DNA of 64,000 bases from Giardia intestinalis. Its lineage: Eukaryota. Position numbers and translations under genes: made by a program. This document shows, piece by piece, positions 4,112-50,144 of this stretch. Numbering within the stretch: the stretch's first letter is position 1; each line of letters starts with the position of its first letter. The notes below the pieces were generated by a model. That model saw nothing but the letters and a program-made list of their open reading frames with translations, had not been told where the DNA came from and ran no database searches. The stretch lies in assembly GCA_000002435.2 (NCBI GenBank), contig CM018790.1; one strand, 5' to 3'.

Positions 4112-4157
4112 TTTAAAAATATTTTAGATTCCAGGCCCACGCACCAAGATCACTCGC

Positions 4158-13100: not shown

Positions 13101-16100
13101 CGCCGACTCGTCCACGGCAAGGAGAGACCCTAAGACGTTGAGATACTGATAGATATCGACAAGGAGGCCCTTTATCTTTAGTCCCAGGAGAAACTCGGGG
13201 GTTCCAAAGTTCGCTAGCGCAATCTTAGCCTCGAAGAGCTTGCTGGAAAACTTAGAAAGATACTGGTCGACACGACTCTTGCAGGCGGCCAGGGCCTGGG
13301 TCGATGCGGTGGCGTCCTTCACCTGGTAAAGGGCATAGTCAATCTGCGCAGTCATCATGACGGCGAAAGAGATGCAGAGCATTTCTCCGGAGAGCGCGCT
13401 GATGGGAAGGGACTCAGAGATTGCCGCTTGGAAGTCTTTGAAGCCATAGAAGTCCTTGTCAGAGTAGCTATATGGAGACACCGATGCCTGCACCGAAACA
13501 CACGAGGTGATAATATCAAAAGGCGAGGCTTCCGAAAGCGCAGATTGAACCATCGAGGCGTTGCTCTGTGCGGGGAACACAAGCTCATTAATAGGGAGCG
13601 AGGCAATAGGCTTGAGGCAGCCGTCGCCCCGAATCTTCAAGGCCTTCAAAAGCTGGTTGCGAAGAGTTTCTCTATGGGCGGTATCGAAACGATTCAGCCA
13701 GAGCTCCGGCTGGTCTGTAGGCAATATGGAGACTGCGGTGGATAAACTAATGTGCTCACCCTCCGAAGAAACAAAACCCTTTATGAAGTTCTGCTTTTGT
13801 CCAGTTGCCATAACCAGTGGCTCTCCAAAGACCAACGTTTCAATGGCAGAAAAGAGCTTTTTGATGTGCGGGCGGAGGGTCTCTTCTGGCTTGGCGCTTC
13901 CAGTGGAAAGGATCTCGAGCACATCCGAGTCTGCCAGGAAGTAGAACCGGGGAAACAAAATGCGCTTTTGCTCCAGGTACTTGCGCAAGCTAGTTTGAAT
14001 GTCGGCAAGGAGACAGCTGACAAGCTCAATGGTGACAATGACGTCCTTATAGAGCCCAAGGAATGCATTGTCTGCGGTAGAAGGTGAGAGCCCAGCGGCA
14101 TGTGATTGCAAGGCCCCAGCAGAGTAGGGAACCGGGGCCTTAATAATGCTGATGAGTGACAGAGTAACACCGCGAGAATGCGGAAGTTGGGCAGATGATG
14201 GGTCCTGCTCGCTGGGTGCAGAAAATGAAGACCCACAGCATGCCACCTCAACTAGTTCGTCGCAGTCGGCTAAGAGAATGCTGTACAAAACACGCAGGCT
14301 GTCGTAGAACTTCTTCTCCTCTGCAACAAGCACCCTTCGCCCCATTACAGGCTCCAGAATACTTATCTGCTTGGCTATTGTGACCATGACATGACCCAGG
14401 CGCGTGTAGCTATCAATTATGGCGGTGCAGTCGTCGATCTGGTTCTTCAGTGACTTGGAATATGGATTGGTCGAAACAGCCATGATTATTGCTCTTTTCT
14501 CGACCAGCTGCGAAAAGAGGTGCTTCCAGACCGCAGACAGAGGGATCAGTGTTAGACCCGTCTTCTTGTTCAGACCAAGCTCAACCGAGCACAGCTCCTC
14601 TTGCGCCAAAGGCGTTAGCTCGTGGAGGGCAAAGAGGAGCTTTGCCTCCGATGCAAGCCAGTAGGAGGTCTCCTCGACCGCCGCTCGAATGCTGGTCTCA
14701 TTTTCGGCACGAACACATACCTCACGAATTATGCTTATGGTCTTCTTGTACTCCGTTGTTTGAGGATTCTCTGCGGAGATATTTCCTCGGTTTGTAAACA
14801 AGCAAACTGCGGCTAGGAAAAGAACCTGGCACCCATTCATGGTGTCCACAATTGAGGCTGCGACAGTATCGGCCTTCAAGGCAAAGTACTTTATTATGGA
14901 GCCAAGATTGGTCTTTTCGATGATCTCACGGTAATGGGCTTGGGTCAAGGAGTTGCTACGGAGGGCTTTGAATACACTTAGTGACTGGCTAAACAATGCC
15001 GCCACAAAGGTGAGGTAGAGAGTCGCGGCCTGCTTCAAGCTGCTGATGGACTCAAGCGTCAATGCACTCCCTCGCAGGTCCACAGCCCCTAGGAGGTCGG
15101 AGATATCTGTTATCTCAGAAAGGAACTTCTCCCGGCATGCCAGGGCCTTTGTCTGGATAAAGTCTGCCATGTCAAGTCTATTTTTGACGATGCTCCACTC
15201 CAGCCGCATGAATGCAGAGCACCCCGCCTCCAGTTCAACTAGTATGGGAAGAAAGCCAGAAAACGCGTCCTTGAAGGCAGAAATTATTGCAACGCTGTTC
15301 TTGAGCTGCTTAGCGCTTTCCGTGGGAAGCATGGACATGTAGTCGACGTTGAAGATGGAGAGAGCCTCGGACGAGAGGGTTTGCATAGTGGCAAGTATCT
15401 CGGCCACGTTCTGGCGGACCTCATCGAAGAGCAACGAGTAAGCACACGCCGCTTTTCCGCCATAGATGACTCCATTTTCTGCGTCGGTCCTGGTGAAAAA
15501 GAGCACTTTGAAGAAGGAATTAAACTCAGCAAGATCGGCAGGAGCACGCACGCTAGTGTTTGCATCGCAGTAGGCGGTGAACTCCTGAATGCCCGCAGTT
15601 AGCTGCGCCAGAACATCCTTGGACTTGCTCAGGAGAGAGGCCTCGCCGCTGCCGGCTAGCTTGTCCACTAAAATGTCCCAGAACTCCTTCTTCTTCGCCT
15701 CCAGCTCTGACTCGATGTTGTTCAGCCTGTTAGACAAAGAGAGAAATGAGGCGTCTGCGGCGTCAATGAGAGAGAGCACATTTTCATAGAAGGCGCTAGA
15801 AAGCAGGATAACAGCCTTAAATCCCAGCATCTCCTCGTGCACTTTCTTCAACTTACCTTTCAGCAGGGTATGGGCGTCCTGGAAGAAGGCCGTGAAGTCT
15901 GTGAAGTCATCAGAGCTGGCAAAAGCCCCGTGAATAGCGTCGCAACGCTTCGTGAAGCCAGAGCACTCCGTGCTTATCTTGTCGGCTGCCTGCTCAGCAA
16001 AGTAGCTCGCCGCGGCTACGGCGACGTCTAGGATGGCTGCAGGCTTCTTATTCACGAGGCGGATTGCATGCTCTATGTTAACCGTGATCACCCCGTTGGA

Positions 16101-18479
16101 AGGAGACACGTTGTAGATGTGCTTCTCTGACCCTGGCTGCGGGATCAGAAAAGGCAGGTTGGCAAGAAGAAGATCCTCGGGCTGGCTTACTTGTGACATG
16201 TAAGATTGACTCAGGTCTGCCAGCCGTTTGCAGTTTTCTAGAGTCTGGAGTCTTTCTGCACAGGCCTTCGGGTTTTGGGCGCCAGAAAGCAGGACCAGCG
16301 CGCATTCTCTTTGGATAAAAGCCTCCATTTGGTGGAGGTGCGCGGCTATCTTGCTGATATTCACCAAAGCCCCCGGAAGCGTGTTAACGGATAACGCGCG
16401 CATGTCGCTGATGAGTTTCACTAGCGCGGGGTCATCCGACAGGTGGAAGTTCGAGTTGGCAGGAAGGTCCACGACAGACATTAGCTGCCTGAGCAAATAT
16501 TCCTTGACACTGTCTGGAGAGAGGGTGAGAGCACCGGTTGTCTGGTTGATTCCGATCGGGGTGGGCAAGGGGGTTAGCAGAGAAAGGTCAGAAGACAGCG
16601 CGCCACAATACTTGGCTGCAAGTACCTTCGCCACGCATCCAGTCCAATACTGCACAACCGTGAAACCGCACGGCTCCGGTAAGTTGGCAATGAAGCCCGA
16701 GATGAGGTTTTTCAGAGAAGACATTGCCTCGGTCCAGCGCAACTGCCCAGAGATCAGGGACACTCTGGATATAGACACGAGGATATCCATACCCTTCTTG
16801 TGGAAGTCGTCTAGTTTTCCCAGGCTCTCCTTAAACCGGGCATGGATCTTCCGGATGTGCTCACTAATCTTAGCAAAACGAGGTACAGGGTTAGAGGGAT
16901 CCTGCGAGCTCTCGGCAGATGCAATGTCACATGTGATCTGCTGGAACGGCTGGATGTTTGATTGTTGGATTGCCTTCTGTAACTCCGTGTCATAGACCTG
17001 AGCGGCTTTAAGAATGGTGGGCTTTTGATACGGACGGATGATCTGAGAAAGTTCGTTGTAGAAGGCTGCCGCGCTCTGCAAAGTAGCGACATAGGGCGTG
17101 AGATAGGTGACGAGCTGCATGCAAGAAACAACCTCCGCGGGAAGCGCAAGCTTCTGCGGATCATACCCCAGGCCAGAAAGGAAAGTGACGAGGGCGTGGA
17201 CACCCAGCATCTTCTCAGGAAACTGGGCCACCATGTGCTTTTCCTTATTCATGTAAAGAAGCAGAATGCAATTAGGCTGCGCAGACATGGTTGAAAACCC
17301 GTTTCCAGGAGACTCGGCAAAGAGCGCGATGGATCCTTGTATGGACTTCATATATGCAGAGAGCAGCTGTCGGGCACTACGCACCGCGTCCTCTTCTGCA
17401 GTCTTGAAAAACTCAACACTCGACTGGACAGACGAGGAGAAACTTGCCAGGCTAGATACATCGGCTCCGCAGAGATCCTCCATGAATGGAAGGAGATTGG
17501 TGCTACAGGCGTTTAGGATCGATCTAGTCTGTCTTATCGTATTCAGCCTCACCATAGTGTCTGCATGGGTCCCCTCACTTAGAGAACCAAGGGTATTCCT
17601 CGCGCTGGCCATCATGTCATTAAAGGACTGGATTATGTTGGCGACGATAGTGCTGTTTGCGGGCCGCAGTGCGTCCCTGATCGACGGGCGCTTAAAGAGA
17701 AAAGAGATCTCCGGAAATATGAAAAAGTGAGAACCAAGTGTATTCGGGTTCACAGAAGAAAGGAGCGCTAATATCTTCGTGGCAACGGGGCCTTCAAGCT
17801 TCTCCAGCCTTTTATCAAAGTCTTGCAGGATGGCAGTCAAGGTCTCTGTATGCGAGAAGAATGTGTCTGGAATAAAAAGGGACTCTAGCGCCGGTTGCTC
17901 TTCGGGCAGGAGCTTGTTGATCGCGCTCACGGTACCGTGGAGAGCGTTAAGTCCGTCGACTCTGGCCTGAATGTCTTGAATGTCCGCATCCAGGCCCGCA
18001 TCACTGACAAAGGATTGAAACGCCGGGTCACTGAAGAACAGAACTGATTGCTCGATGAGAGTAGCGCTTTGACTCAGCAAGGAGCCTGCGAAGACAGACC
18101 CCAAATAGGTCCGCAGTCCTCGGACAAGCTGCGGGGCAAAGACACGCCGCAGGAAGTCGGCCTTTCGTGCATAGGGCGGGTCCAGAGCCGAGAGAGAATT
18201 GGAGGCCTCAGTGGCGGCTGGGAGGGAGGTCAGAGGCGTCTTGCAGGCCTCTTCCATGATCTTAAGAGTCCGCAGTATTAACTGTGCTCGCTCGCCGGCA
18301 AAACCCGGCTGTTTGCTCAGGTTCGTGTAGAGACGATACTCGCTCTGAAAGGAGACCGGAGACCCGTCAGACTCCGATGTCGGCACCCTTTCGGCTTGTT
18401 CCAGGAAAGCCATGATCTCCTCGTCAGGCTCCTGGCCGCCTGCACGAACTTGGGAAAGATACTTCGAGAGAAGATCCAT
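4158..18479 (-). CDS. Dynein heavy chain, 4773 aa, single exon.
   Basis: AAA1 P-loop GPAGTGKTESTKALGG, a further P-loop GGTGSGKS, and other AAA modules. The size and architecture (N-terminal tail, six AAA modules, coiled-coil stalk) fit a dynein heavy chain. The start is a true ATG at 18479 (ctaaaaaataccATGg). Confidence 0.9.
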   Translation of the reverse strand: MDLLSKYLSQVRAGGQEPDEEIMAFLEQAERVPTSESDGSPVSFQSEYRLYTNLSKQPGFAGERAQLILRTLKIMEEACKTPLTSLPAATEASNSLSALDPPYARKADFLRRVFAPQLVRGLRTYLGSVFAGSLLSQSATLIEQSVLFFSDPAFQSFVSDAGLDADIQDIQARVDGLNALHGTVSAINKLLPEEQPALESLFIPDTFFSHTETLTAILQDFDKRLEKLEGPVATKILALLSSVNPNTLGSHFFIFPEISFLFKRPSIRDALRPANSTIVANIIQSFNDMMASARNTLGSLSEGTHADTMVRLNTIRQTRSILNACSTNLLPFMEDLCGADVSSLASFSSSVQSSVEFFKTAEEDAVRSARQLLSAYMKSIQGSIALFAESPGNGFSTMSAQPNCILLLYMNKEKHMVAQFPEKMLGVHALVTFLSGLGYDPQKLALPAEVVSCMQLVTYLTPYVATLQSAAAFYNELSQIIRPYQKPTILKAAQVYDTELQKAIQQSNIQPFQQITCDIASAESSQDPSNPVPRFAKISEHIRKIHARFKESLGKLDDFHKKGMDILVSISRVSLISGQLRWTEAMSSLKNLISGFIANLPEPCGFTVVQYWTGCVAKVLAAKYCGALSSDLSLLTPLPTPIGINQTTGALTLSPDSVKEYLLRQLMSVVDLPANSNFHLSDDPALVKLISDMRALSVNTLPGALVNISKIAAHLHQMEAFIQRECALVLLSGAQNPKACAERLQTLENCKRLADLSQSYMSQVSQPEDLLLANLPFLIPQPGSEKHIYNVSPSNGVITVNIEHAIRLVNKKPAAILDVAVAAASYFAEQAADKISTECSGFTKRCDAIHGAFASSDDFTDFTAFFQDAHTLLKGKLKKVHEEMLGFKAVILLSSAFYENVLSLIDAADASFLSLSNRLNNIESELEAKKKEFWDILVDKLAGSGEASLLSKSKDVLAQLTAGIQEFTAYCDANTSVRAPADLAEFNSFFKVLFFTRTDAENGVIYGGKAACAYSLLFDEVRQNVAEILATMQTLSSEALSIFNVDYMSMLPTESAKQLKNSVAIISAFKDAFSGFLPILVELEAGCSAFMRLEWSIVKNRLDMADFIQTKALACREKFLSEITDISDLLGAVDLRGSALTLESISSLKQAATLYLTFVAALFSQSLSVFKALRSNSLTQAHYREIIEKTNLGSIIKYFALKADTVAASIVDTMNGCQVLFLAAVCLFTNRGNISAENPQTTEYKKTISIIREVCVRAENETSIRAAVEETSYWLASEAKLLFALHELTPLAQEELCSVELGLNKKTGLTLIPLSAVWKHLFSQLVEKRAIIMAVSTNPYSKSLKNQIDDCTAIIDSYTRLGHVMVTIAKQISILEPVMGRRVLVAEEKKFYDSLRVLYSILLADCDELVEVACCGSSFSAPSEQDPSSAQLPHSRGVTLSLISIIKAPVPYSAGALQSHAAGLSPSTADNAFLGLYKDVIVTIELVSCLLADIQTSLRKYLEQKRILFPRFYFLADSDVLEILSTGSAKPEETLRPHIKKLFSAIETLVFGEPLVMATGQKQNFIKGFVSSEGEHISLSTAVSILPTDQPELWLNRFDTAHRETLRNQLLKALKIRGDGCLKPIASLPINELVFPAQSNASMVQSALSEASPFDIITSCVSVQASVSPYSYSDKDFYGFKDFQAAISESLPISALSGEMLCISFAVMMTAQIDYALYQVKDATASTQALAACKSRVDQYLSKFSSKLFEAKIALANFGTPEFLLGLKIKGLLVDIYQYLNVLGSLLAVDESAPDCFDSRRWIWTRELKYRIHKDSDDLYVFALDSITPYSYDYQGLQAKLIHTPLTFRCYNTISEAIALQLGGVLQGPAGTGKTESTKALGGKLGRTVVCFNCDTSIERSDLSRLLIGIILSGSMGCFDEINRLDSSVLSAVATDIEAIQKVILLRSGKTSLCAFGDCRNINLDENTFTLSEITVPIRAISPYASIYVTMNPASREYRGRSELPFSLTKLLRGCFMGRADTSLIIETILSTSGFVNCKELAEKCDLSYVLCARRIPKQVHLDWGLRSLQAILRQAAIVRASSFKMLSDSSAEALYGMESNVIIKCISDATLSRITGKSVEIFKEILTGVFGSRAIKQSESTIKKFGAVSSLEEELVGALPPDLREPHGIAVLQLYRALTTKMGVALLGGTGSGKSYIFSLLKDAVFKLTKGNIVIQEFLIAPKSMSRQELLGYVDPATGEWNDGALSSAARLSVQLLNSRELPCTWPIIMLDGSIDPLWIEALNSVLDDNRLLTMSSGERLRFPVNMNPLEAYFNSREVDGRLSAPLQMPLSFLFETDSLAHASPATISRLAIIVVPDTSIDDTLAHLRYQLDTNTDLSGKLSLAGFEAFFRTGLPASMKRGTAAIDVCTHMFHSGVGAALMANSGSDLQTAFVAGCIRSFFSEMKICLAAGLPGELNELTLGSAASVLAGRSIDLRGTLATPKHGDSGQAPHFHWAVLSVRNFLTAGVQIIVTGSKTCGKYTALLQAVAETTNSRGQRYKALTLDCSQLTTRQSIVDLLLSECAETQGADGNRYLKPRSVSTKILLILRDCDIVAPDEFAHIETLTFLWSLVAHGKFYTRGGTCLHISDIQVALTTKTLDAIPARLRRRMGIVFMDEDPRDAELVCGPDLFKLYSSLMKASTSLQTWQMRMVSEAETAKLKTRTMNLQEVIALPELLKSVGSLTLFSISSIKALLATEKSEVSLEKITKLLEIFLEVPIPYSQGKSAARACLKTISQVSDEKVLTYAKLGTTAQTLQRALQSDEGIPDAYFSDLSLELVTNKMRIGLLKELVSSLGDTYNGLRLYYAYLNMMQWSPPLIDTVIHEYLKLLSAVEIFLRSSAGVIILSQPHNFSMETALAGALSIGCTVMFAGTDHATPLVLRFLADRVAHGHHHIAYFMDCNTLEADPEWYALLSALSSRDILYFRNRLSAADLRSLVATFTEVSSVPNGDSMSESELATLFLNLFVRAVQPVILLNPERRSTDGIFSLVPALRRNIQLVSFELLYLDSSSIQLSTTDDILKAPIRSIAHTLPTKTVSIISGASMASNEGRNLKPLNTIEQILKIASGYVSKYLSVYKPHNTVQISYYTKIYVIYHLLKSRWTFMLNRKRERLSKGLKQLQKAQSEVDALAAQAQERTKQVEFSQKEANQALENISSRMSEANDRKLAAHALQKELSEREQGIMKDKEQADAELSTVMPVLQEATKAVQAIPSDALTEIKSFQSPPPAVSVVLEAVLVLLGHQDLSWKGMKAFLSQSGVLRTIANFDMKTASKASIHAVNKVVRNNADCFEQERIRRVSRAAAPLAKWIQANIKYAEVCTKMEPLMKAVESANRSLDSMRKEIQTINDEVAAIEAQIAGLRDDFNAKTEQLVKYKQELQQIQAKQRKGQEMLHGLRAEKLRWEEGYKQASQQLDIIDKCAVNAAILFVVAGASTDDMRESFFGSPVSAKDDDKGLTVRAAFGALLYDSVTVNRYVSYGLVASTSSLENTAIFDMLYSSSKLPRNSAPRGAADDDARDMRDMRNYNLITTIVLSHVTEATGVLTFLRNYFDQTKNQDVSVEGTTFVSAASENLANLVSIAARFGKTIVVLNCDSGSIPSVLFPYIRYSGGGYRASESAAADTPAGTGYVNTSYLLSTATTIMPVQSFKFSEVSPSFRMILVSSLDVFVPSDLSQHVLILSYAPTRKSQANLYTDRILAEWSPESLKKIEELRDSQLAFNEQLFKVEQNLLTALSAATDSATTSESLSIIDNVTLMNVLKQAEQQTLEIQKAQEGVETIQKELDAVKERILPLARDMDTCVSTFSSLQPANSLYIGDQCSVMPLLIKALQSNKPSTANPSEITADLVLATQQQFRSDTLLRLQTSVFSSDVVAASALLLRNYCPDIFTDSLFKYFTGRADSNASISVPTWVPANLTQEFRLVLSCFSSARLSTISITNSSVWSNFPAKVKVCNNLNDINQLFPDAAGRLTYVEMAALVSACRKDLISTALQLAVSRTLLKNDYAKELQFLDSIAAAIRHSAGFLQPVILYTLQGQDPTSTIPNSTPITINPGQEKAANKAIETVLEDLGGRYESWKSEQSIDTMSSAVMHTIVIKGAHLCANWLSVLPSWLMESSVSFKLKYNEELLSHVKIVLLLEPKPYIPQSLGRVGWRVCLVVDSSPKEAFLDAVRRWPTTVPSQNKTESFIRKLYALLYISTALHIILDARRLYAPRGVALDPGWSQNDLTAIISIIQDCMVRGLPASQDENVYLLGFSKRLSGLLLDAIYGVATKDSSDNALLLEFTKISYNSKAITAIFELIDKGEKAIPATVSVEGNAQSYGARDIVSAINSIPVIQYLLPPAHVLCNKSLLAGSSCFDAAQLIDGIALYVQQCYPEKPVPNYLGLPTNALLTQSLKNSITTRSLLARISIQSGTQESASDGNAIASIYDTILQLSSIYEKDVKPKLTVFATKLKEMGAFLNEAQQTDPAIARIIPIIDELHLQGNVIMSIGKVLESDFKEAAAAHSNYLLASTRIKAIASLILSRILPERWCVGITAVPCPTAPHDSPELATLRSGDPFEYLSTFLTSASSSIASAYESCRQSVNESSTMTQIELALSDMPRPAAFIEAIRRYEGIAMGQELNSIKLVASSQACNKRAHPVITLKAGSCVLQGCSLRTLIDLNVESDQLENIYVYSADNEAHLSSSAIVPFYVDQLRESRVAGIEVMHVKMSAYSKEVDEMVTLNGIYVHLSNR

Positions 18480-25901: not shown

Positions 25902-26576
25902 AATAACTGGGCAAGAGATAGAGGGACACTGGGTGCTGAGCGCGGGACAGATCTGAGCATCTGCTTGGAGTAATTCGCTCAACCTAACGGCTGCTCTAGC
26001 GCTGTGCCGCTGACTTTTTGTAGGTGTGGCTCGAGCATCATTATAGACCGCTTGGTGGTCAACTGTGCCCGACAACGAGGAATGGACAAGAGGCCACGAA
26101 CCGAGCAGTTCGGCCCATCCCTGATCGAGGAACGCCCAGGAGCTCTGCGGCCGTCAATGTTGCTGGCTCGGAAACGAATGCCCAACGAAGCTCGTCGGGT
26201 GACGCTCGAGAGCCGGCCACTCGCTGCCTTCCAAGCGACGCTTCCAGCCAACCTCTGTGGTCCTTGTCAAGCAGATGAGACCAATTGAGGAGAGAGCGGC
26301 CGATCAAGGTCAGCGTGACTCTAGCGCGGCGGAAAGGATGGAGACCAAGCGTTCTGACACGCACGTATCGATTGGACAGAAACAACCCAGAGATTCCAGC
26401 AGCATGCTGACGCCAGTGTGGAGCATTGATGAAGAACCCCGGCCCTGAAGGGCGACACCCCTGTCTCTGAAGAGGCAGCCATGCTTGTGTGCGCCTCGAC
26501 TACACCCGCAGAGGGCCCTATAACATAGCCTTGCAAGTACTAGTGGGCAGAGTGAACGATTTTTGAAACAAACTTC

Positions 26577-26825
26577 ATGGCCGACGGCGATGACCACACA
26601 GCCAGCTCCCCAGCAGTAGCCCCCGCCATCCCACAATTCACTCGTAAGAAGCTCCACAGGCGGTTGGATGACGTGCTAGGAAGAGATGCCACAGATACAG
26701 TCTACTCTCTCAAGGGTTATCCAGACCTCGCTGTGAAGGAGATCCCTCTCGACGGCCTGGACAAGGGTAACATGGACGCCATCAGAATAAGATTGACCGG
26801 GGTGAGGCTGTCGCCTGCCACCTGA
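26577..26825 (+). pseudogene. Truncated 5' fragment (about 75 aa) of a NEK kinase paralog. It retains its initiator region.
   Basis: MADGDDHTASSPAVAPAIPQFT...VYSLKGYPDLAVKEIPLDGLDKGNMDAIRIRL aligns to the N-terminus of the NEK at 56924 (MADGDDHAASSQTSAPAIPQFT...VYSLEGYPNLAVKEILLDGLGKSNVDAIKLEL). The upstream context gaaacaaactTcATGgc is also shared. The frame ends at 26825 with no kinase core following. Confidence 0.6.
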
Positions 26826-27389
26826 CTGGTCCCCCATGCGAGCCACCGCCGCCCTGGGCACGCTTCTCGCATGCACGGCTGGGACCAGACGTCTGAGAGC
26901 CGAATCTCCTCGGATCCCTGCAGAAGAAGCCCGGACGAGGGGCTGAGGGCCCCGGTACTCAGCCCAGCAAGCAGCAGACCCGCGACTGCCCGATGAGGGA
27001 ACCACCGAGGAGGGCTCGCGGGGGCCCGAAGAAGAGAGTCTAGAGAGCAGCCGATAGAGTGAGCAGGGGGCCCGCACCTCCCTGTCATGGAGAGCGGCGC
27101 ATGGTGGCAGGCCCCAGTGGCCATTCCTCTAGGAGACCACCTGGCCCCACAGGATCGATTACTAACTACACGAACTGGCTCAAGAACGCCGAGGTTCACT
27201 CAAGGGGCTGCACCCTTGGGGACCTCCTACGCGATCCACAGCACAAGGAGTCGCCACACCTCTTTCACCTCACCAGAGGGCCTCGAGCAGCACGTCTCGG
27301 GAACTCTCTCCCGTCCGGGCTCCTTCTGCAGCCTTGCGACAGACAGACGGTGCCAGCTCACGCGGGCCCTCGCCGTTGCCTGCCGTGAT

Positions 27390-30300
27390 GCCCCGGACCA
27401 GTGGGTGCCGCTGGGGCCTGCCTGGAAGTATGATCCAAAGATCTCACAGGTAAGCCTCGCTCAGTCCCTGGCCAGCCCGGAGGCGGGGGCTGGCCACGGG
27501 TCGCAGTGATAGCCACAGTGGTGATAGGGAAGAGCTCCCTCCGTTTGTGGATCTGGGGCCTGTGCGTTCCTCGGCTGTTCTGCGGATGTGCACAGCTGGA
27601 CTTGAGGCGAAGGAGAGCCCGCGAGGACCAGATCCGTATTACGAACGCAAGATCATACCTTTGGGCCCCAGAGAGCAAGCCGTGAGTCTCTACTCGGAGG
27701 ACCACTTCGAAGACGCTTGCCCTCTCGGCAGGACACACACGCTGGCTCTGTGGCCTGCCGTGCGAGAGCGCCAAGCAACCAACCGAGCACCTGAGAGAAG
27801 CAAACGATGACAGACACAGAGTGCTGGGCGACGACAAGCTGATCCTTCCGGCCCACATACCGAACCAGACAGCTGCCATGCTCATCCACCAGGGTGCGCG
27901 CATGATCGCGAGCATCGAGCAGGCCGGGACTGGGGTCGCGCTCCCCGCAATCAGGGGCCTAGACGCCCTGGTGGGAAGCTGCCAGAGGGCCCCTCTGCCA
28001 GACAACACCACGGAGCAGTCCCAGAGCAAGGCAGACCCAGACCCCGAGAAGGCGAGGCGCCGGATAGCAAACAGGGTGAACAACGCGCTGAGCTTTAATA
28101 GCTGCCAGGTCCTCTGTTCCTTGACACACCCACGATAGACAAGCCAGAGAAGGCCAAGGCCCCCTCAGCGCGCTACACCCGTGCGTCCCCCCGAAGGCTG
28201 CGTTGGCCTTGACTACCCTCCATCGATGAACTCGACAGGGCTGGAGTGGCAACCGAGGAGGAAATGAGGAAGGCCCTGTTTGGAACTCTCAACAAGAAGG
28301 CCTCGGGCGTGTCTGGTCTCGGGCCGGTCCAGCTCAGGCGATGAAGCAGAACGACAGCTTTGTGAAATACCTCACGCAGGCGTACAACGAGCTGACCACT
28401 CACCCCGAGGCGATACCCGAGGTGACGACCATGTTCGAGTTCCGGGCGATCCTCATCCCGAAGGAGTCCGACGGATACCCCCGATCGCGATAGGCGGACG
28501 GTCACGAACACCTTCCACCGCGTCCTGCTGAAGGGCTGATCAGGCATGCCAACTACCTCTCATGCGAGCAGATCGCCTTCAAGCAGAACGCATACGCGGT
28601 AGGCGTGAGGAGGGCCCACGAGCTCATCAGCGGGCGGGGATGCACGCCGTCTCCCTCGACACAAAGAACGCCCTCAACTCGCTCCCGAGGGCAGAGGTCG
28701 TCAGAGCCCTGAACGAGGCGGGCGTCCCGAAGGTCCTGGTCGACTACATCAGGAACTTCCTCGACCTGAGGCACAGCAAGGACGTGAAGTGCGAGGTCTG
28801 CGGCGTCCCCCAGGGCGACCCGCTCAGCACGTTCCTCTTCTGCATGGCCACCGAGCGCCTCCTGAGACGCCTCGAGGAGAGGGGCATCGCCTTCCTTGCC
28901 TATGCAGACGACATCGTGGGGTTCCACGACGAAGGGTACCCAGCAGGTGTGATAACACAGCAGACCATGGACCTGACGATCAGGAGCGACAAATGCAAGT
29001 CCACCATGGCGGGCGAGGAGGTGACCTTCCTCAACCACCCGGCGTCCCCCACTCCTGCTAGTCTCGCCCCAAAGGCCATCGCAGGTGCCGAGACTGCCTT
29101 GAAGAAGATCGAGAATGCCCCAATAACCATCCACCAGAAGCTCATCCTGGTGTCACTCTGTGTGGTCCCGATGGTGAGCTACGCCCCCCTGGTCGAAGTA
29201 ACATCGGACAAGGCGGACTACGAGGAGTTCGACAGACGTCGCACAAGGCATCAGCACTAACCAACAGAAGCTGCGATCGCCTGGTCGACTTCCTAGCGTA
29301 CCCGAAGGAGAAGGGCGGCCTGGACCTGCTCATGCCTGGATTCTACCACGACGAGCTGCGGAGGGTATGGGCCTCCTTGGACGTCAACAAGGGGGCCAGA
29401 GACCCGGTGGAGCTGTCGGTGGGCGGCCAGGCACTGCAGGGGAAGGGGCCTACTTCAACCGCCTCCTCACGCGCACACACCAGCTTCCGGACAGAGCGGC
29501 GACGTACTGTCTGCAGATGTGCGGCGTGCTGACCGAGGAGGAAAGGGCCCTGAAGGAGAAGGGCGGCTCGATCATGGCGCAGAAAGAGGCACCTGCCCGG
29601 GCTGCCACGAGGCACGACATGATCGTCGCGTGCCTGTACCTCCGCGTCTCGGGGAAGCTCAGCGCAGAGCTGGAAGTCAAGACCCACAGCCACCTCAGCG
29701 ACCAGAACCAGAAGCCCGACATCTGGCTCGTCGACAAGTGCAAGGCAGTGGACGTGGGTGTCATCCAGCCCCGCCAGATGGATACCACAGCGAGAAGGCC
29801 AAGAAGTACAGGGACGGGACGCTCCCGATCATCTACGGGACGGACGGATCCCTCCACCCCAGTCCAAGGGGCACCTCAAGGAGCTCCACGTGGACCTCTG
29901 TCCGGGCTGCCTTCGCCATCGCCCACATGGCTGCAGAGGCGAACGAGCACCTGACGGGGCTGATCAGACGGGCCGGGCCGAAAGCCTGGCCACCCAGAGC
30001 GACCGTCTCCTGTCATCCTACTTCTGACAACCGAATGAGTCCATCCCCGGGACCTGTCGACAACGACCGAGAAGGGGCGCAAGACTGGACACACAACCGA
30101 GTTGAATCCCAACCAGAAGAGAAAGCCCCGCTAGCTGCTGCTGATATACATGGACAGTATTGAGAATGACAACAAAGACCAGAGCTTCACCAACCGTAAA
30201 GGGAGAACAAGGAGAGGCACCCTAGTAGACCAGCGAGCCTGCAGGACGGCGTGATCTCCAAAAGGATCTATGTGCACTCTTAGACCGAGCACACACCCGC

Positions 30301-30460
30301 AGAACACCCGAGGAACGCAGATAGCTCCTCCCTTCCACCACTGTGGTCTTTATATTGATACACGACCAACCCTCGTCTCCGGACATCACCAAAAATTGAG
30401 CGGGAATTTACCAGTAAGATCTCTGGACAGCGCCCGCAGGCAGGCCCCAGCGGCACACCA
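27390..30460 (+). mobile_element. Copy A of a ~3.1-kb degenerate non-LTR (R2-clade, restriction-like-endonuclease type) retrotransposon-like element, consistent with the 'dead' GilD family of Giardia. The RT/CCHC/RLE coding region is broken by shared frameshifts and stops. It has a 25-bp terminal inverted repeat.
   Basis: RT motifs are split across frames: FRAILIPKESDGYPRSR* ; FHRVLLKG* ; HAVSLDTKNALNS ; GVPQGDPLSTFLF ; FLAYADDIV. The downstream frame carries RHDMIVACL...KPDIWLVDKCKAVDVGV (RLE-like). 5' TIR at 27401-27424 and 3' TIR at 30436-30460 (caggcaggccccagcggcacaccac). Confidence 0.8.
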
Positions 30461-30537
30461 CACACTCAGTATACCTCTTTGGCAAAAGTATTCTTAATGA
30501 TATCATTGGTGTTAAGACCGATTGCTCCGGAAATTCC

Positions 30538-32562
30538 TTGCTGCACAAGGCCGCTCTGGAGTGCAGTGGCCTTGAAGCTAAAGCGCTTAGCTCGTCACTA
30601 GCCTACCTTTGCCGATTACGCAATACTTCTGGAGAGACAGCCTTACAATTGGCGATAAAACATGGAAATTTGGAGCTCGCCAAACTTCTGATTGATGAGG
30701 AAGCAGGTAGCTATTCTGACACAAAAGAATCTGCAGTGGAGCTGGCCCTTCTTCGGGGTTCATGCGAAGTAGCCAGGCTATTAATTCCATTTGAAGGGAA
30801 GATACTTACTGAGCGGGGGTATACGCAGCTGATGTTAGCGGCTTCGTTTGGTGAGAGACGACTCGTTGAGAAGTACATCCAACGACAAGCAAAGAGGCAG
30901 GCAAAGAATGGGGTCACTGCGATGCATTTGGCCGTTATATCTGCAATCTCGCTTCATAAGTCTATCAAGCTTCTGCTGCAAGAAAGAGATCGCTTGGCAA
31001 CTGACAGCGGCCACCTTATAGTAGAGGCAGAAGTTCCGCTGACCCACAGCTCTGTGACACCACGAAACACACGATCTCCACGGTCTATTAGTATCCTAAC
31101 CAAGTCTTGCGGTAGGGGTGACTTGTTTGCGCAGACAGCTGAAAAGGAATCAGCCTACTCTAGGCCACGTGTCACTTCGTCTAGACGCCCAATAACATCG
31201 GTACGATATCCAAGACAGACGCCGGCTCTATCTGCTAGTACACGTGTAGGAACACCAAAAAGCAGCTTCAGCTCACGAGGAGGCCAGCAAATATCTCCTA
31301 GCATTACCGTACCATCGATGCTATCCTCCTCTCCAAGAAAGAGGAGCGGAAGATGCGCGGCTTCGCGGTCTGGAGGCTCTAAAACATCTCCCATGGCGCG
31401 ACCGCGCACAACCCAAATCACAGCCCAAAAGCTTCCTGCTGAAGTTACTAAGCACCGGGCCCAGAGCACGTACGGAACCCAGCTTGACGGGAGCATAAAG
31501 GTACCAGTGCTTCAGCTTGATAACCTGAGCGGAAAGCATGTGTCATTTCCAGATACTCTCAGGATAAAGGACGATGCCAGCGTTGTAGAGTGTAGAATTA
31601 GAAAGCTCAGATCTCTGTTTCAAGCCTTCGTCGAGATTATCCTGCTCCTTATACCACTAGAAAAACAGATCTCCCAAAGGAATGGCCTCACGGTGCTCAT
31701 GATAGCTGCGAAGGCTGATGTTGTAGAACTAGTTAGACTGCTTGTCAATGACGAGAAGTTGATGGTAGATGCACGCGGAGAGACTGCCTTGATGATAGCA
31801 GTTAGGAACAATGCAGCAGCATCTGTCAAAGGGCTGCTTAGCCACGAGGCAACCCGTGCATCTGCCAATCGTGAACGCTATACCGCATTGCACCTAGCAG
31901 TGCAAACGAATAACAGCATTCTTGTTGAGCAGCTAGCAACTCTAGAGAATAATATTCCACAGGCATGCTACACGTTAAAAGACTTTCCTAACAGCAGGAA
32001 TGCGCACGCCTTGATCAACGTGACCGCCCTCATGATGGCGTCTATCGGTAATGCTCCAGAATGCGCTCTGATTCTCTCCAGATACGAGGCCGGGCGCCAC
32101 GAGCAGCTCTTCGGCTATACTGCGTTGATGCTTGCCGCATACTTCAATCACTCAGCCATTGTAGAGCTTCTTTTACATCCTGAATCGAGGGAGACTATGC
32201 GCAACGGCTGGACAGCGCTCATGGTTGCCAGCAGCAGAGGAAACCTTCGCTGCTGTGCTAAGCTGGCAACTTGCGAATCCAAGCTGACCGCTCAGGGGCT
32301 GACTGCGCTCATGCTAGCGTGCAAGCACAATTTCCTCAACATTGTGACGCTTCTCTATCCGCTCGAATCAAGCATCTATCACAAACGAGTAAGAAACGGG
32401 GTTGTGGAGCGTTGGTCCTGTTTAACATATGCGGCTGCAAAGGGGAGCACAGAGGTGGTAATGTTTCTCTTGGAACATCACCCCTCTCGAGAAGACATAC
32501 GATTGGCTGCGAGCTGCTCACATAACCCAAAGATATCAATCCTACTGTCAGCGCACCATTAA
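30538..32562 (+). CDS. Ankyrin-repeat protein ('protein 21.1'-type). The open frame begins just inside the 3' flank of element copy A with a TTG. The first in-frame ATG is at 30832, so the N-terminus is probably truncated or displaced.
   Basis: Many ankyrin repeats (GETALQLAIKHGNLELAKLLI, GVTAMHLAV..., NGLTVLMIAAKADVVELVRLLV, GWTALMVASSRGNLRCCAKL). There is no ATG for the first 98 codons of the open frame. Confidence 0.6.
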   Translation: MLHKAALECSGLEAKALSSSLAYLCRLRNTSGETALQLAIKHGNLELAKLLIDEEAGSYSDTKESAVELALLRGSCEVARLLIPFEGKILTERGYTQLMLAASFGERRLVEKYIQRQAKRQAKNGVTAMHLAVISAISLHKSIKLLLQERDRLATDSGHLIVEAEVPLTHSSVTPRNTRSPRSISILTKSCGRGDLFAQTAEKESAYSRPRVTSSRRPITSVRYPRQTPALSASTRVGTPKSSFSSRGGQQISPSITVPSMLSSSPRKRSGRCAASRSGGSKTSPMARPRTTQITAQKLPAEVTKHRAQSTYGTQLDGSIKVPVLQLDNLSGKHVSFPDTLRIKDDASVVECRIRKLRSLFQAFVEIILLLIPLEKQISQRNGLTVLMIAAKADVVELVRLLVNDEKLMVDARGETALMIAVRNNAAASVKGLLSHEATRASANRERYTALHLAVQTNNSILVEQLATLENNIPQACYTLKDFPNSRNAHALINVTALMMASIGNAPECALILSRYEAGRHEQLFGYTALMLAAYFNHSAIVELLLHPESRETMRNGWTALMVASSRGNLRCCAKLATCESKLTAQGLTALMLACKHNFLNIVTLLYPLESSIYHKRVRNGVVERWSCLTYAAAKGSTEVVMFLLEHHPSREDIRLAASCSHNPKISILLSAHH

Positions 32563-33118: not shown

Positions 33119-34957
33119 TCACTCAGAAAGGATCTCAATAATCTCCTCGTATATCAACTCATTAGCAATGTCGAGAGCCGTAGTACCAGCCTCGAATCCA
33201 ATAAACTCGCGGGTGGATCTTAAGTCCTTTTCCCTATCCTTAAGGAGTCTCACACACCCTGGCTCCCTGTTACACACTGCCCACATAAGGGCTGTCCATC
33301 CATATTTATCCGTCCTCTTTGTTTCCTGAATATTCCTTCTAACTGCTCCAACATCTCCAATGCAAGCAGCGCACATAAGGTTTGTCCAGCCCGAGGCATC
33401 ACGCTCGCTCTTGTGCTCACAGAGCAATCTGACACAGTCTGTATGGCCTTCCTCTGCTGCAAACATGAGGGCTGTCGAACCATCACTCTTCTGCATGCCC
33501 CCCTCCTTCTCTAGCAATAGTTTAACACAGTCTTGGTGGCCGTTCTGCGCTGCAAACATGAGGGCGGTCTTACCATCGCTATCCTTCATGCGCGCCTCTT
33601 TCTCTAGAAGCAGCTTGACGCACTCTGTGCGGCCGTTCTGTGCTGCCCACATGAGGGCTGTATATCCCCTGCCATCATGCACACCCGCTTGCTGAAGGTT
33701 ACTCCTAACCGCATCAGCATCTCCAATGCAAGCAGCGCACATAAGGTTTGTCCAGCCCGAGGCATCACGCTCGCTCTTGTGCTCACAGAGCAATCTGACA
33801 CAGTCTGTATGGCCTTCCTCTGCTGCAAACATGAGGGCTGTCGAACCATCACTCTTCTGCATGCCCCCCTCCTTCTCTAGCAATAGTTTAACACAGTCTT
33901 GGTGGCCGTTCTGCGCTGCAAACATGAGGGCGGTCTTACCATCGCTATCCTTCATGCGCGCCTCTTTCTCTAGAAGCAGCTTGACGCACTCTGTGCGGCC
34001 GTTCTGTGCTGCCCACATGAGAGCCGTCTTGTCATTGCTATCCTTCATGCCCTCCTCCTTCTCCAGGAGCAGTCTGGCGCACTCTGTGCGGCCGTTCTGC
34101 GCTGCAAACATGAGAGCCGTCTTATGGTTGTTGTCATATTTGCCACCCTCGCGACTAACTAGCAGTCGCACTACATCCGCATGGCCGTATTCCGCTGCTG
34201 TCATTAGAGCCGTCCCTCCGGTCATGCGCCATCTGTCTATCTTAACACCCCCTTCCGCTTTCTTTCTCTCTTGAAGGGGTAGCAATTCCATCATCTCTGC
34301 ATCTGTATCTCCATTCTCTGCCGCATTCACGAGGGATCTCCTCTGCATGCCACCCTCTTTCTCTAACAGTAGCTTGACACACTCCGCATGTCCACGCAGT
34401 GCTGCCATCATGAGGGCTGTCCATCCATCAGGCCTCTGCATACCCTCTTCTTTGTCAAGTAGAAGCTTAAGGCATTCTACGTGCCCATTCCTTGCTGTAG
34501 ACATGAGGGCTGTTTCCCCGGCTCCGTCCTTCATCCCCCCTTGAATTGGTACAAGCAGCCTTACCATTTCAGTGTCTCCCCTGGCTGCTGCCCGCATGAG
34601 TGCTGTGACTCCATTCCTATCTGTTGGATCCTCGTAGGATATAATTACCCTAGTAACCTCTAGGCGCCCGTCGTTGAGAGCATGACGCAGGGCGCTATGA
34701 TCTTGATCACCCTTCACATCCTTCCCGCGCTCCAGGACGGACTTTATCGCCTCTATGGGACTATACCCCGCCACCCACATGAGAGCTGTTTGACCATGGT
34801 TGTCCTGTCTACAGATTAGATTAAACCTAGTACCCAGTAACCCCTTGACATCTTCCGTACCATCCTTAGCGGTCTGCATGAGCTCGGTCACACCACCTGA
34901 GGGGCTCGGGGGGCCGCCAGATTCAACACGCCTGCGATCAACATCGCTCTGTGCCAT
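33119..34957 (-). CDS. Ankyrin-repeat protein ('protein 21.1'-type) with an internal 366-bp tandem duplication. The probable start ATG is at 34957 (aaaataaaaATGgc). An upstream ATG at 35014 lies inside a 30-bp duplicated initiator segment.
   Basis: Repeated ankyrin units (TALMWAAQNGRTECVKLLLEKE...). A 122-aa block is exactly duplicated. Confidence 0.75.
   Translation of the reverse strand: MAQSDVDRRRVESGGPPSPSGGVTELMQTAKDGTEDVKGLLGTRFNLICRQDNHGQTALMWVAGYSPIEAIKSVLERGKDVKGDQDHSALRHALNDGRLEVTRVIISYEDPTDRNGVTALMRAAARGDTEMVRLLVPIQGGMKDGAGETALMSTARNGHVECLKLLLDKEEGMQRPDGWTALMMAALRGHAECVKLLLEKEGGMQRRSLVNAAENGDTDAEMMELLPLQERKKAEGGVKIDRWRMTGGTALMTAAEYGHADVVRLLVSREGGKYDNNHKTALMFAAQNGRTECARLLLEKEEGMKDSNDKTALMWAAQNGRTECVKLLLEKEARMKDSDGKTALMFAAQNGHQDCVKLLLEKEGGMQKSDGSTALMFAAEEGHTDCVRLLCEHKSERDASGWTNLMCAACIGDADAVRSNLQQAGVHDGRGYTALMWAAQNGRTECVKLLLEKEARMKDSDGKTALMFAAQNGHQDCVKLLLEKEGGMQKSDGSTALMFAAEEGHTDCVRLLCEHKSERDASGWTNLMCAACIGDVGAVRRNIQETKRTDKYGWTALMWAVCNREPGCVRLLKDREKDLRSTREFIGFEAGTTALDIANELIYEEIIEILSE
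33350..34082. repeat. Near-perfect tandem duplication, 366-bp unit in two copies, inside the ankyrin gene.
   Basis: Antisense ORFs at 33360 and 33726 start identically (MQAAHIRFVQPEASRSLLCSQSNLTQ...) and stay identical for about 100 aa. The sense protein repeats a block of about 122 aa (YTALMWAAQNGRTECVKLLLEKEARMKDSDGKTALMFAAQNGHQDCVKLLLEKEGGMQKSDGSTALMFAAEEGHTDCVRLLCEHKSERDASGWTNLMCAACIGD) twice. Confidence 0.8.
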
Positions 34958-35306: not shown

Positions 35307-38300
35307 GTGGTGTGCCGCTGGGGCCTGCCTGCGGGCGCTGTCCAGAGATCTTACTGGTAAATTCCCGCTCAATTTTTGGTGATGTCCGGAGACGAGGGTT
35401 GGTCGTGTATCAATATAAAGACCACAGTGGTGGAAGGGAGGAGCTATCTGCGTTCCTCGGGTGTTCTGCGGGTGTGTGCTCGGTCTAAGAGTGCACATAG
35501 ATCCTTTTGGAGATCACGCCGTCCTGCAGGCTCGCTGGTCTACTAGGGTGCCTCTCCTTGTTCTCCCTTTACGGTTGGTGAAGCTCTGGTCTTTGTTGTC
35601 ATTCTCAATGCTGTCCATACAGATCGGCAGCAGCTAGCGGGGCTTTCTCTTCTGGTTGGGATTCAACTCGGTTGTGTGTCCAGTCTTTGCCCCTTCTCGG
35701 TCGTTGTCGTCGGGTCCCAGGGATGGACTCATTCGGTTGTCAGAAGTAGGATGACAGGAGGCGGGGTGACCAGGCTTTCGGCCCGGCCCGTCTGATCAGC
35801 CCCGTCAGGTCCTCGTTCGCCTCTGCAGCCATGTAGGCGATGGCGAAGGCAGCCCGGACAGAGGTCCACGTGGAGCTCCTTGAGGTGCCCCTTGGACTGG
35901 GGTGGAGGGATCCGTCCGTCCCGTAGATGATCGGGAGCGTCCCGTCCCTGTACTTCTTGGCCTTCTCGCTGTGGTATCCATCTGGCGGGGCTGGATGACA
36001 CCCACGTCCACTGCCTTGCACTTGTCGACGAGCCAGATGTCGGGCTTCTGGTTCTGGTCGCTGAGGTGGCTGTGGGTCTTGACTTCCAGCTCTGCGCTGA
36101 GCTTCCCCGAGACGCGGAGGTACAGGCACGCGACGATCATGTCGTGCCTCGTGGCAGCCCGGGCAGGTGCCTCTTTCTGCGCCATGATCGAGCCGCCCTT
36201 CTCCTTCAGGGCCCTTTCCTCCTCGGTCAGCACGCCGCACATCTGCAGACAGTACGTCGCCGCTCTGTCCGGAAGCTGGTGTGTGCGCGTGAGGAGGCGG
36301 TTGAAGTAGGCCCCTTCCCCTGCAGTGCCTGGCCGCCCACCGACAGCTCCACCGGGTCTCTGGCCCCCTTGTTGACGTCCAAGGAGGCCCATACCCTCCG
36401 CAGCTCGTCGTGGTAGAATCCAGGCATGAGCAGGTCCAGGCCGCCCTTCTCCTTCGGGTACGCTAGGAAGTCGACCAGGCGATCGCAGCTTCTGTTGGTT
36501 AGTGCTGATGCCTTGTGCGACGTCTGTCGAACTCCTCGTAGTCCGCCTTGTCCGATGTTACTTCGACCAGGGGGGCGTAGCTCACCATCGGGACCACACA
36601 GAGTGACACCAGGATGAGCTTCTGGTGGATGGTTATTGGGGCATTCTCGATCTTCTTCAAGGCAGTCTCGGCACCTGCGATGGCCTTTGGGGCGAGACTA
36701 GCAGGAGTGGGGGACGCCGGGTGGTTGAGGAAGGTCACCTCCTCGCCCGCCATGGTGGACTTGCATTTGTCGCTCCTGATCGTCAGGTCCATGGTCTGCT
36801 GTGTTATCACACCTGCTGGGTACCCTTCGTCGTGGAACCCCACGATGTCGTCTGCATAGGCAAGGAAGGCGATGCCCCTCTCCTCGAGGCGTCTCAGGAG
36901 GCGCTCGGTGGCCATGCAGAAGAGGAACGTGCTGAGCGGGTCGCCCTGGGGGACGCCGCAGACCTCGCACTTCACGTCCTTGCTGTGCCTCAGGTCGAGG
37001 AAGTTCCTGATGTAGTCGACCAGGACCTTCGGGACGCCCGCCTCGTTCAGGGCTCTGACGACCTCTGCCCTCGGGAGCGAGTTGAGGGCGTTCTTTGTGT
37101 CGAGGGAGACGGCGTGCATCCCCGCCCGCTGATGAGCTCGTGGGCCCTCCTCACGCCTACCGCGTATGCGTTCTGCTTGAAGGCGATCTGCTCGCATGAG
37201 AGGTAGTTGGCATGCCTGATCAGCCCTTCAGCAGGACGCGGTGGAAGATGTTCGTGACCGTCCGCCTATCGCGATCGGGGGTATCCGTCGGACTCCTTCG
37301 GGATGAGGATCGCCCGGAACTCGAACATGGTCGTCACCTCGGGTATCGCCTCGGGGTGAGTGGTCAGCTCGTTGTACGCCTGCGTGAGGTATTTCACAAA
37401 GCTGTCGTTCTGCTTCATCGCCTGAGCTGGACCGGCCCGAGACCAGACACGCCCGAGGCCTTCTTGTTGAGAGTTCCAAACAGGGCCTTCCTCATTTCCT
37501 CCTCGGTTGCCACTCCAGCCCTGTCGAGTTCATCGATGGAGGGTAGTCAAGGCCAACGCAGCCTTCGGGGGGACGCACGGGTGTAGCGCGCTGAGGGGGC
37601 CTTGGCCTTCTCTGGCTTGTCTATCGTGGGTGTGTCAAGGAACAGAGGACCTGGCAGCCATTAAAGCTCAGCGCGTTGTTCACCCTGTTTGCTATCCGGC
37701 GCCTCGCCTTCTCGGGGTCTGGGTCTGCCTTGCTCTGGGACTGCTCCGTGGTGTTGTCTGGCAGAGGGGCCCTCTGGCAGCTTCCCACCAGGGCGTCTAG
37801 GCCCCTGATTGCGGGGAGCGCGACCCCAGTCCCGGCCTGCTCGATGCTCGCGATCATGCGCGCACCCTGGTGGATGAGCATGGCAGCTGTCTGGTTCGGT
37901 ATGTGGGCCGGAAGGATCAGCTTGTCGTCGCCCAGCACTCTGTGTCTGTCATCGTTTGCTTCTCTCAGGTGCTCGGTTGGTTGCTTGGCGCTCTCGCACG
38001 GCAGGCCACAGAGCCAGCGTGTGTGTCCTGCCGAGAGGGCAAGCGTCTTCGAAGTGGTCCTCCGAGTAGAGACTCACGGCTTGCTCTCTGGGGCCCAAAG
38101 GTATGATCTTGCGTTCGTAATACGGATCTGGTCCTCGCGGGCTCTCCTTCGCCTCAAGTCCAGCTGTGCACATCCGCAGAACAGCCGAGGAACGCACAGG
38201 CCCCAGATCCACAAACGGAGGGAGCTCTTCCCTATCACCACTGTGGCTATCACTGCGACCCGTGGCCAGCCCCCGCCTCCGGGCTGGCCAGGGACTGAGC

Positions 38301-38408
38301 GAGGCTTACCTGTGAGATCTTTGGATCATACTTCCAGGCAGGCCCCAGCGGCACACCACTGGAAGCAACCGGTGGGTGGAGTAAAGAAACTGGTAGAATA
38401 ATCCGAAG
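35307..38408 (-). mobile_element. Copy B of the same degenerate retroelement, inverted orientation.
   Basis: The ORF set is the reverse complement of copy A (the same MRADRLQAERIRG... RT fragment at 36499-37197, minus strand). TIRs at 35307-35331 and 38335-38359. About 32 bp of shared 5' leader extends to about 38408. Confidence 0.8.
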
Positions 38409-50000: not shown

Positions 50001-50144
50001 CGCAATAGCTTCTCCCTACAACCGATGTGATTATCGTTACGGCCCGTGACCAACCCTCGTCTCCGGACATCGCCAAAAATTGAGCGGGAATTTACTCGCG
50101 AGATTTGCGGACAGCGCCCGCAGGCGAGGGCCCAGCGGCACACA
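47064..50144 (+). mobile_element. Copy C of the degenerate retroelement. It begins 2 bp after the stop codon of the P4-ATPase.
   Basis: Same ORF fragments as copy A (47516-47833, 47975-48226, 48257-48955 RT fragment, 49062-49649, ...). 5' TIR at 47095-47119. Degenerate 3' TIR at 50119-50144 (caggcgagggcccagcggcacacac). Confidence 0.8.

Follow-up and report, generated by a model that had tools for sequence, protein, structure and literature searches.

Retrotransposons of the non-LTR type (those without long terminal repeats) that encode a restriction-like endonuclease (RLE), such as R2, R4, NeSL, CRE/SLACS and Genie 1/GilM/GilT, carry a single open reading frame (ORF) in which a reverse transcriptase (RT) is accompanied by a CCHC motif and a C-terminal endonuclease of the PD-(D/E)XK type, and they have no poly(A) tail. 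In R2, two protein subunits are guided to opposite sides of the target by distinct 5' and 3' RNA segments, and inverted terminal repeats are not known from R2 or from other RLE-bearing non-LTR elements. A stretch of 64,000 nucleotides of Giardia intestinalis DNA (assembly GCA_000002435.2, contig CM018790.1; in the following, the window) contains three degenerate copies of an element which resembles this group in coding layout and in the lack of a poly(A) tail, but which differs from it in that one sequence stands at both ends in opposite orientation and in that no site specificity is evident. A preliminary description of the window had noted a perfect 25-bp terminal inverted repeat (TIR) at the ends of this element. 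The best overall explanation, which we consider probable, is that this 25-mer is one block of a long, heritable terminal inverted repeat (IR) of a GilD/Genie 2-type element, the arms of which are renewed.

The family is taken here to be GilD, and GilD to be the same as Genie 2, on indirect features. The name GilD reportedly stems from Arkhipova and Morrison in 2001 and the name Genie 2 from Burke, Malik, Rich and Eickbush in 2002; the latter authors reportedly found IRs of up to 172 bp on all Genie 2 copies, a figure that the 170 nt of the 3' arm of the window element fit. If so, the IR of this family is already known. The described family and the window element have in common the Giardia host, a length of about 3 kb, an interstitial position near genes of the Ank/NEK/VSP type, the order RT, then CCHC and RLE, the degeneracy of all copies and, as reported, inverted repeats at the ends, while they differ in nothing essential, the window 5' arm being strongly diverged (71%) and the outermost 26 nt missing at the 3' ends. 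That the repeat is the family-wide long IR of GilD/Genie 2 is, in our judgement, very likely. A full-text search of the literature other than the primary papers returned no secondary description of this IR, only general statements on GilD. Three retrotransposon families, two of them telomeric, are reported for isolate WB (PMC3091692), and GilD is described as dead, interstitial, non-telomeric, not arranged in head-to-tail arrays, located in variable regions near genes of the VSP type and full of microhomology deletions (PMC2861651).

The repeat, its further copies and its outer end

With up to three mismatches allowed, the 25-mer GTGGTGTGCCGCTGGGGCCTGCCTG matches the window four times, each time exactly (30437-30461 and 38335-38359 on the minus strand, 35307-35331 and 47095-47119 on the plus strand), and no match occurs in 100 dinucleotide-preserving shuffles; the inverted pair is real. 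Together with its exact reverse complement it bounds an element of about 3.06 kb, three copies of which were delimited by BLAST of the interval 27401-30460 against the window. Copy A, a degenerate RT and RLE element on the plus strand, occupies 27401-30461 and so ends one nucleotide later than first given. Copy B lies on the minus strand at 35307-38359 with its 5' end at 38359, or at 35307-38385 if a 26-nt 5' extension (38360-38385) is included. Copy C, on the plus strand again, runs from 47095 to about 50143-50145, or from 47069 with a 26-nt 5' extension (47069-47094). The three copies are thus clustered within 23 kb in alternating orientation, with BLAST identities to copy A of 99.2% for copy B and 97.7% for copy C. 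In copy B the inverted pair of 25-mers is perfect (25/25); the 5' tip of copy A has lost one nucleotide (GTGG-GTGCC), as had been observed, and copy C combines a perfect 5' tip with a different 3' tip.

The repeat does not stop after the 25 bp originally assigned to it but continues inward as a gapped IR. In copy A it comprises a 5' arm of about 190 nt (27401-27590), the first 24 nt of which are the 5' TIR as noted, and a 3' arm of 170 nt (30292-30461), the last 25 nt of which (30437-30461) are the 3' TIR. By repeat search and gapped alignment the two arms are about 71% identical, with indels, over the first ~145 nt, and segments 27513-27545 and 27563-27590 pair with 30314-30346 and 30292-30319 respectively. 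The long IR is present in all three window copies, with arms at ~38169-38385 (5', its outer limit being set by the element-free contigs discussed below) and 35307-35476 (3') in copy B, and at 47069 to ~47285 (5') and ~49975-50145 (3', in a variant called beta) in copy C. The 25-mer is the best-conserved block of a terminal IR of 170-205 bp and not the whole repeat. Cofolded as RNA, the arms of the window copies form 137-145 intermolecular base pairs at about -231 to -235 kcal/mol, well below the -148 to -156 kcal/mol of shuffled arms; across the copies that were cofolded, 137-203 intermolecular base pairs form between the arms, far more stably than in shuffled controls. A search of 27200-30700 against Rfam (E <= 1) gave no match, including to a hepatitis delta virus-like ribozyme as found at R2 5' ends. 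A 16-nt TIR-like match at 27106-27121, 285 nt upstream of copy A, was considered as a relic of another element end and rejected as chance, since local alignment of 26801-27400 with the full arms reached scores of 22-29 only, against a shuffled maximum of 30.

Contigs with homologues in isolate DH yielded four further full-length copies (L001-L004), so that seven full-length copies from two isolates are available. The IR is carried by all seven, between unrelated flanks, and a deleted remnant with a 3' arm on a contig of isolate GS (L005) retains a weak trace of it. The body homologous to the window element starts at element position 164 in L001, L003 and L004, with 88-89% identity, and at position 192 in L002, with 87%; upstream of it the DH copies carry the 3' end of the element once more, in inverted orientation. 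The arms of one and the same copy are 98% identical over 170 nt in L004, where they total about 205 nt; in L003 the value is 87% (119 nt), in L002 84% (55 nt) and in L001 81-95%. The presence of the IR in DH and GS copies assigns it to the family and not to the insertion sites, and the identical inner junction of arm and body in L001, L003 and L004 indicates that it is inherited and not made anew at a random junction with each insertion.

Alignment of 15 arms, for which the 3' arms were turned into their reverse complement and the 5' arms left unchanged, together with a listing of ends, places the terminus of the family 26-29 nt beyond the boundary first drawn, where the 25-mer had been taken as the end. 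Read inward, the end consists of (CG)TTTACTCCACCCACCGGTTGCTTCC and an A or G, followed across that boundary by GTGGTGTGC... L004 and L001 have this terminal extension at both ends, L003 has it at the 3' end and copies B and C have it at the 5' end; it is absent from both ends of copy A and from the 3' ends of copies B and C. Flanking sequences had been said to differ between the copies, which holds in part; copies B and C have 26 nt in common outside the 5' tip (TTTACTCCACCCACCGGTTGCTTCCA), a stretch which in isolate DH belongs to both arms. Counted from the G of GTGGTG, the ends form two clusters, at about -26 to -29 and at about -3 to +5, the second of which is the foot of a small hairpin, CACCGG-N6-CCGGTG; the shortened ends that halt there are both ends of copy A, the 3' end of copy C and the 5' end of L003.

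An independent view of the 5' boundary of copy B is provided by 10 short-read assemblies with the annexin gene next to this copy (element-free contigs L017-L026). From 40132 downward they follow the window as far as 38391, L017 with 100% identity, and diverge after ...TTCTACCA, where the window goes on with GTTTC-TTTACTCCACCC...; as this break lies directly outside the extension, the 26 nt belong to the element side. Past 38391 the 10 contigs go on with a 345-aa annexin gene and other genes that occur nowhere in the 64 kb of the window, and as an empty-site test they inform on the 5' boundary only, showing neither a target-site duplication nor a clean insertion. The 25-mer is an internal block which is terminal only in copies with shortened ends, and the window copies form a local subfamily in which the 5' arm is old and diverged and the ends are about 26 nt short, by which the 25-mer was left at the edge. 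At its 5' end the element repeats, in inverted orientation, the end of its 3' untranslated region, and therefore both strands finish with ...CCGGTGGGTGGAGTAAAC-3', just before which stands the hairpin CACCGG-N6-CCGGTG.

Coding content, other elements with inverted ends and a distant family

All three forward frames of copy A contain many stops and frameshifts, and the RT is spread over the three of them. Its longest open stretch, at 28562-29257 on the plus strand, contains the YADD motif and matches Pfam RVT_1 with E = 4e-16, while the remainder lies upstream in other frames; a stitched translation reaches E = 1.5e-17. A degenerate CCHC motif and an RLE region (..RHD..KPD..D.V..) follow in frame 2 of the same strand at approximately 29500-29800. 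The best solved-structure matches of the DH homologue P0001 are R2 proteins, then group II intron RTs, and its residues 405-516 (C..C..H..C, RHD, KPD, D.V) align with residues 930-1045 of the R2 protein 9nl2_A; this alignment of the RLE region is weak alone (domain E about 10) and is supported by the canonical motif pattern. These motifs and matches support the classification as a putative RLE-type (non-LTR) retrotransposon with RT, CCHC and RLE, in agreement with the preliminary description. The best protein matches come from Giardia duodenalis isolates DH, WB (ATCC 50803) and GS, with E values down to 5e-191, and the WB homologue is annotated as 'Reverse transcriptase/endonuclease, putative'. 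The ORF is degenerate in every copy examined, the DH 'proteins' reading through out-of-frame stretches.

The preliminary description suggested that the ends might relate to RLE cleavage or priming, or to mobilisation at the DNA level. On the latter reading the arms could be classical TIRs for cut-and-paste or copy-and-paste transposition by a nuclease or transposase, perhaps the element's own PD-(D/E)XK endonuclease. The tips of copy B, perfect over 25 nt as in a DNA transposon or a miniature inverted-repeat transposable element, are the best-conserved block of arms otherwise 71% identical, and dead copies are nearly identical at different sites, both as such transposition would have it. On the other side, RVT_1 is the sole domain in the three longest copy A ORFs (two sense, one on the opposite strand), in which neither a transposase nor a tyrosine recombinase nor a GIY-YIG domain was found, and by eye no target-site duplication is visible at the junctions of the few copies inspected (A, B, C and L004). 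Moreover, full-length copies continue beyond the 25-mer, which lies inside a long gapped IR, and arms of about 170-205 nt that tolerate indels are unlike transposase binding sites, which makes this explanation very improbable. RT elements with inverted-repeat ends of about 100 to more than 300 nt do exist among DIRS-like and Penelope-like elements, the latter as inverted pseudo-LTRs, but DIRS elements use a tyrosine recombinase and Penelope elements a GIY-YIG nuclease, neither of which was detected in the copy A ORFs tested, and the RT of the Giardia element groups with the R2 type.

A distant family with the same architecture is found in isolate P15 (assemblage E), from which a second protein search retrieved RT proteins 35-45% identical to the window element; one of them has N-terminal C2H2 zinc fingers, as has R2. 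IRs surround the RT in the element at 7075-11570 of contig L008 (element 2; 7075-7266 versus 11217-11409, ~190 nt, 93%), elsewhere on the same contig (1603-1702 versus 5719-5818, 100 nt, 96%) and on contig L010 (5215-5271 versus 7262-7318, 57 nt), with identities of 80-96% across the three. The outer terminus reads ...CCGGTGAAAAAGTAAACC in P15 and ...CCGGTGGGTGGAGTAAACG in the assemblage-A family, with a short hairpin directly inside in both; P15 ends with ...CCGGTG-N5-AGTAAAC, an end of the type ...CCGGTG(5-6 nt)AGTAAAC being similar in the two families, and the GTAAAC end common to both families supports a real 3' terminus. The hairpins lie about 12-17 nt inside the true terminus and differ in sequence, CACCGG-N6-CCGGTG in assemblage A (for example at L004:11640-11674 and at 38360-38385 of the window) and GAGGAAG/CTTCCTC in P15 (L008:5785-5818). 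The comparison shows an inverted-end design that has outlived about 60% protein divergence between the families, and the preliminary claim that the repeat is the element's own and does not stem from the target, already carried by the seven full-length copies, holds in this distant family too. GilM is reported as an element of 5,474 bp in tandem arrays (PMC7000408), which the dispersed P15 copies of about 4.5 kb do not resemble. Contig L008 also contains a 1328-nt inverted duplicate of part of the element, 100% identical (45-1372 versus 9541-10868).

Arm renewal, integration and recombination

The IR is intrinsic to the element, its inner junction is fixed, its outer terminus is defined and the same on both strands, and the architecture is kept across distant families. 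The arms are moreover kept or made similar over time. In an identity matrix the 5' arms of L001, L003 and L004 group among the 3' arms with 80-95%, the 5' arm of L003 being 95% identical to the 3' arm of L004 and the 5' arm of L001 92% identical to the 3' arm of copy C, so that the 3' tip of copy C, previously called degenerate, is another variant of the arm. The window 5' arms share only 54-64% with every other arm, while the bodies share 87-89%. Since 5' arms are nested among 3' arms and the bodies are 87-89% identical, in one lineage or more the 5' arm has been exchanged for a new copy of a 3' arm, and arms which are 93-98% alike within copies, while the proteins of the families have diverged to ~40% identity, require renewal or selection. 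A sub-block of about 28 nt occurs in three variants, which are combined as alpha/alpha in L004, alpha/gamma in L003 and beta/gamma in L001, the window 3' arms being alpha in copies A and B and beta in copy C; such mixtures are in keeping with a 5' arm whose template was the 3' end of a different transcript. A 'type I' group uniting the 5' arms of the window and of L002 with the 3' arm from GS was weak (43-51% identity) and is not relied on.

The same data bear on whether the 5' arm goes back to a single accident in one master copy, that is, an inversion by 'twin priming' as in L1 or a palindrome derived from the target, which was then inherited without a role. In L1 twin priming the second nicked target strand also primes reverse transcription, by which an internal part is inverted with a junction that varies per insertion. 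The Giardia element, likewise of non-LTR type, is similar in that its insertions have an inverted 5' segment, but this segment duplicates the 3' terminus and its junction is constant at position 164 in three DH copies. A single origin predicts just such a constant inner junction in the assemblage-A copies, and the decay of the window 5' arm to about 71% of the 3' arm is what would be seen in a neutral relic. However, the arms are too alike in L004 (98%) and in P15 element 2 (93%) for one ancient event between families at ~40% protein identity, three DH 5' arms nest among the 3' arms, and a target origin is excluded by flanks that differ at every copy; the accident is therefore quite improbable.

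A mechanism in which the inverted ends take part in integration by symmetric priming is inferred here as a tentative proposal, possible but more doubtful than the repeat itself. As both strands end with the same 3' module, the recognition and priming step might act on both nicked strands, and target-primed reverse transcription would then involve recognition of the 3' end and priming on either strand of the nicked DNA. On the second strand, a short complementary DNA (cDNA) would be primed from the 3' end of the element RNA. The full-length first cDNA ends 3' in a copy of the 5' arm, to which this short cDNA would be complementary; the two could anneal, whereby the 5' end would become attached and second-strand synthesis primed. 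Repair of the heteroduplex could renew the 5' arm from the 3'-end template and so keep the arms alike over long periods.

Two of the contigs show palindromes that reach past the element ends, with about 920 nt per arm in L001 (DH contig AHGT01000170; 163-1083 versus 3855-4773) and 431 nt per arm in L005 (GS contig AHHH01000426; 1-431 versus 2072-2502). They extend into flanking tail-to-tail VSP gene fragments at 95-99% identity, and in L001 the arm identity climbs outward from 81% to 99%. These could be real large palindromes centred on the element or an assembly artefact. A wider version of the proposal would take the IR as the working part of an unusual integration, in which either one 3'-end RNA module primes both strands or the cDNA folds back on the 5' arm, which would solve both 5' joining and second-strand priming; a fold-back past the element would copy the flanks and thus give rise to the VSP palindromes of L001 and L005. 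We regard this version as rather improbable.

The window copies themselves bear traces of exchange. Copies B and C form an inverted repeat of 2746 nt without a single difference (35640-38385 versus 47069-49814, spacer 8.7 kb), which stops abruptly at about element position 2689, where copy C switches to another 3'-end variant; copies A and B differ at two sites in the first 2.5 kb, after which their differences are bunched at element positions 2525-2750. The copies are mosaics, which point to recombination or gene conversion that has recently homogenised them. Together with the common broken ORF and the missing 3' terminal 26 nt, the mosaic pattern indicates recent recombination or gene conversion at the DNA level and not fresh retrotransposition, and the window copies look as if they had been spread or homogenised in this way.

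On a different view the IR as a whole is a by-product of palindrome formation or recombination at the DNA level, homogenised by recombination alone and without a role in retrotransposition; it could have arisen where breaks in regions rich in VSP genes and prone to rearrangement were repaired by fold-back or template switching, or by gene conversion between inverted copies. The palindromes of L001 and L005 that cross the element ends into VSP fragments agree with this, as do window copies that are dead, clustered, alternating and mosaic, the position of copy B at a breakpoint relative to the 10 short-read assemblies, and RT sequences reported at Giardia synteny breaks (PMC3091692). Yet L001, L003 and L004 agree in their inner junction and the outer terminus is common to copies with unrelated flanks, and a family of ~40% identity has the same architecture with a similar end motif and hairpin, which sporadic repair would hardly yield. 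L001 and L005 are also short contigs in which the palindrome reaches the contig end (L001) or comes within 63 nt of it (L005), so that assembly error is possible. A by-product without a role is on this evidence unlikely, although it stands ahead of the accident and of classical TIRs.

A renewed, heritable IR with symmetric priming, which we prefer, has to be held against several observations that weigh the other way. The L001 and L005 palindromes into VSP DNA are not predicted by symmetric priming without an added fold-back step. Copies B and C are dead and have lost the 3' 26 nt, yet are identical over 2746 nt, which is better explained by recombination at the DNA level than by retrotransposition, and ordinary gene conversion between copies could equally give the mixed arm variants. 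The site of copy B is a structural breakpoint or a polymorphism between strains and not a clean, simple insertion. The sample consists of seven full-length copies, to which metagenome scans added none: a first scan with conserved arm motifs gave nothing, and six loci from a second had no similarity to the element and were chance 19-mer matches. Finally, the family name and the earlier description of the IR are linked to the window element by indirect features.

Genomic setting and significance

In the window, the three copies are dispersed and interstitial among Ank/NEK, annexin (alpha-giardin type), AAA ATPase, P-type ATPase and VSP genes, the nearest VSP gene lying 3.4 kb from copy C, and the DH and GS copies adjoin VSP genes; a tandem array of the element was not seen. 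Just upstream of copy A, ~225 nt at 26560-26784 are 79% identical to 56906-57131, the start of an Ank/kinase ORF (56864-59881), and may be a fragment of a NEK-type gene. Two Ank-repeat ORFs contain 93-nt periodic repeats, the ankyrin modules, at 33323-34081 and 58886-59771, which match one another in inverted orientation with 65-78% identity. A VSP ORF of 937 aa on the minus strand (53518-56331) includes about 15-17 tandem units of 111 nt, 94-100% identical, at 54281-56134. At the start of the window, positions 1-300 and 952-1251 form an exact direct repeat of at least 300 nt with a spacing of 951 nt in an ORF of 973 aa, and 4158-18479 on the minus strand is a single ORF of 4773 aa.

As a discovery the IR is a minor one, since it was reportedly described in 2002 and the element is degenerate in every copy seen. 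Possible additions to the original description are modest and comprise the GTAAAC terminus with its hairpin, the recurrence of shortened ends, arms that are renewed and mixed, the P15 design and the extended VSP palindromes. How RLE-type (R2-like) elements attach their 5' end and synthesize the second strand is still debated, while R2 enzymes are now being engineered for gene insertion, and identical inverted ends, an arrangement kept in families ~60% diverged in protein and the renewal of arms hint at a symmetric solution. The link with rearrangement breakpoints and VSP palindromes bears on the reshuffling of the Giardia antigen gene repertoire. Should fold-back past the element prove true, this family of elements would have helped to build the inverted VSP gene pairs of Giardia, with ends that are continually renewed from 3'-end templates.

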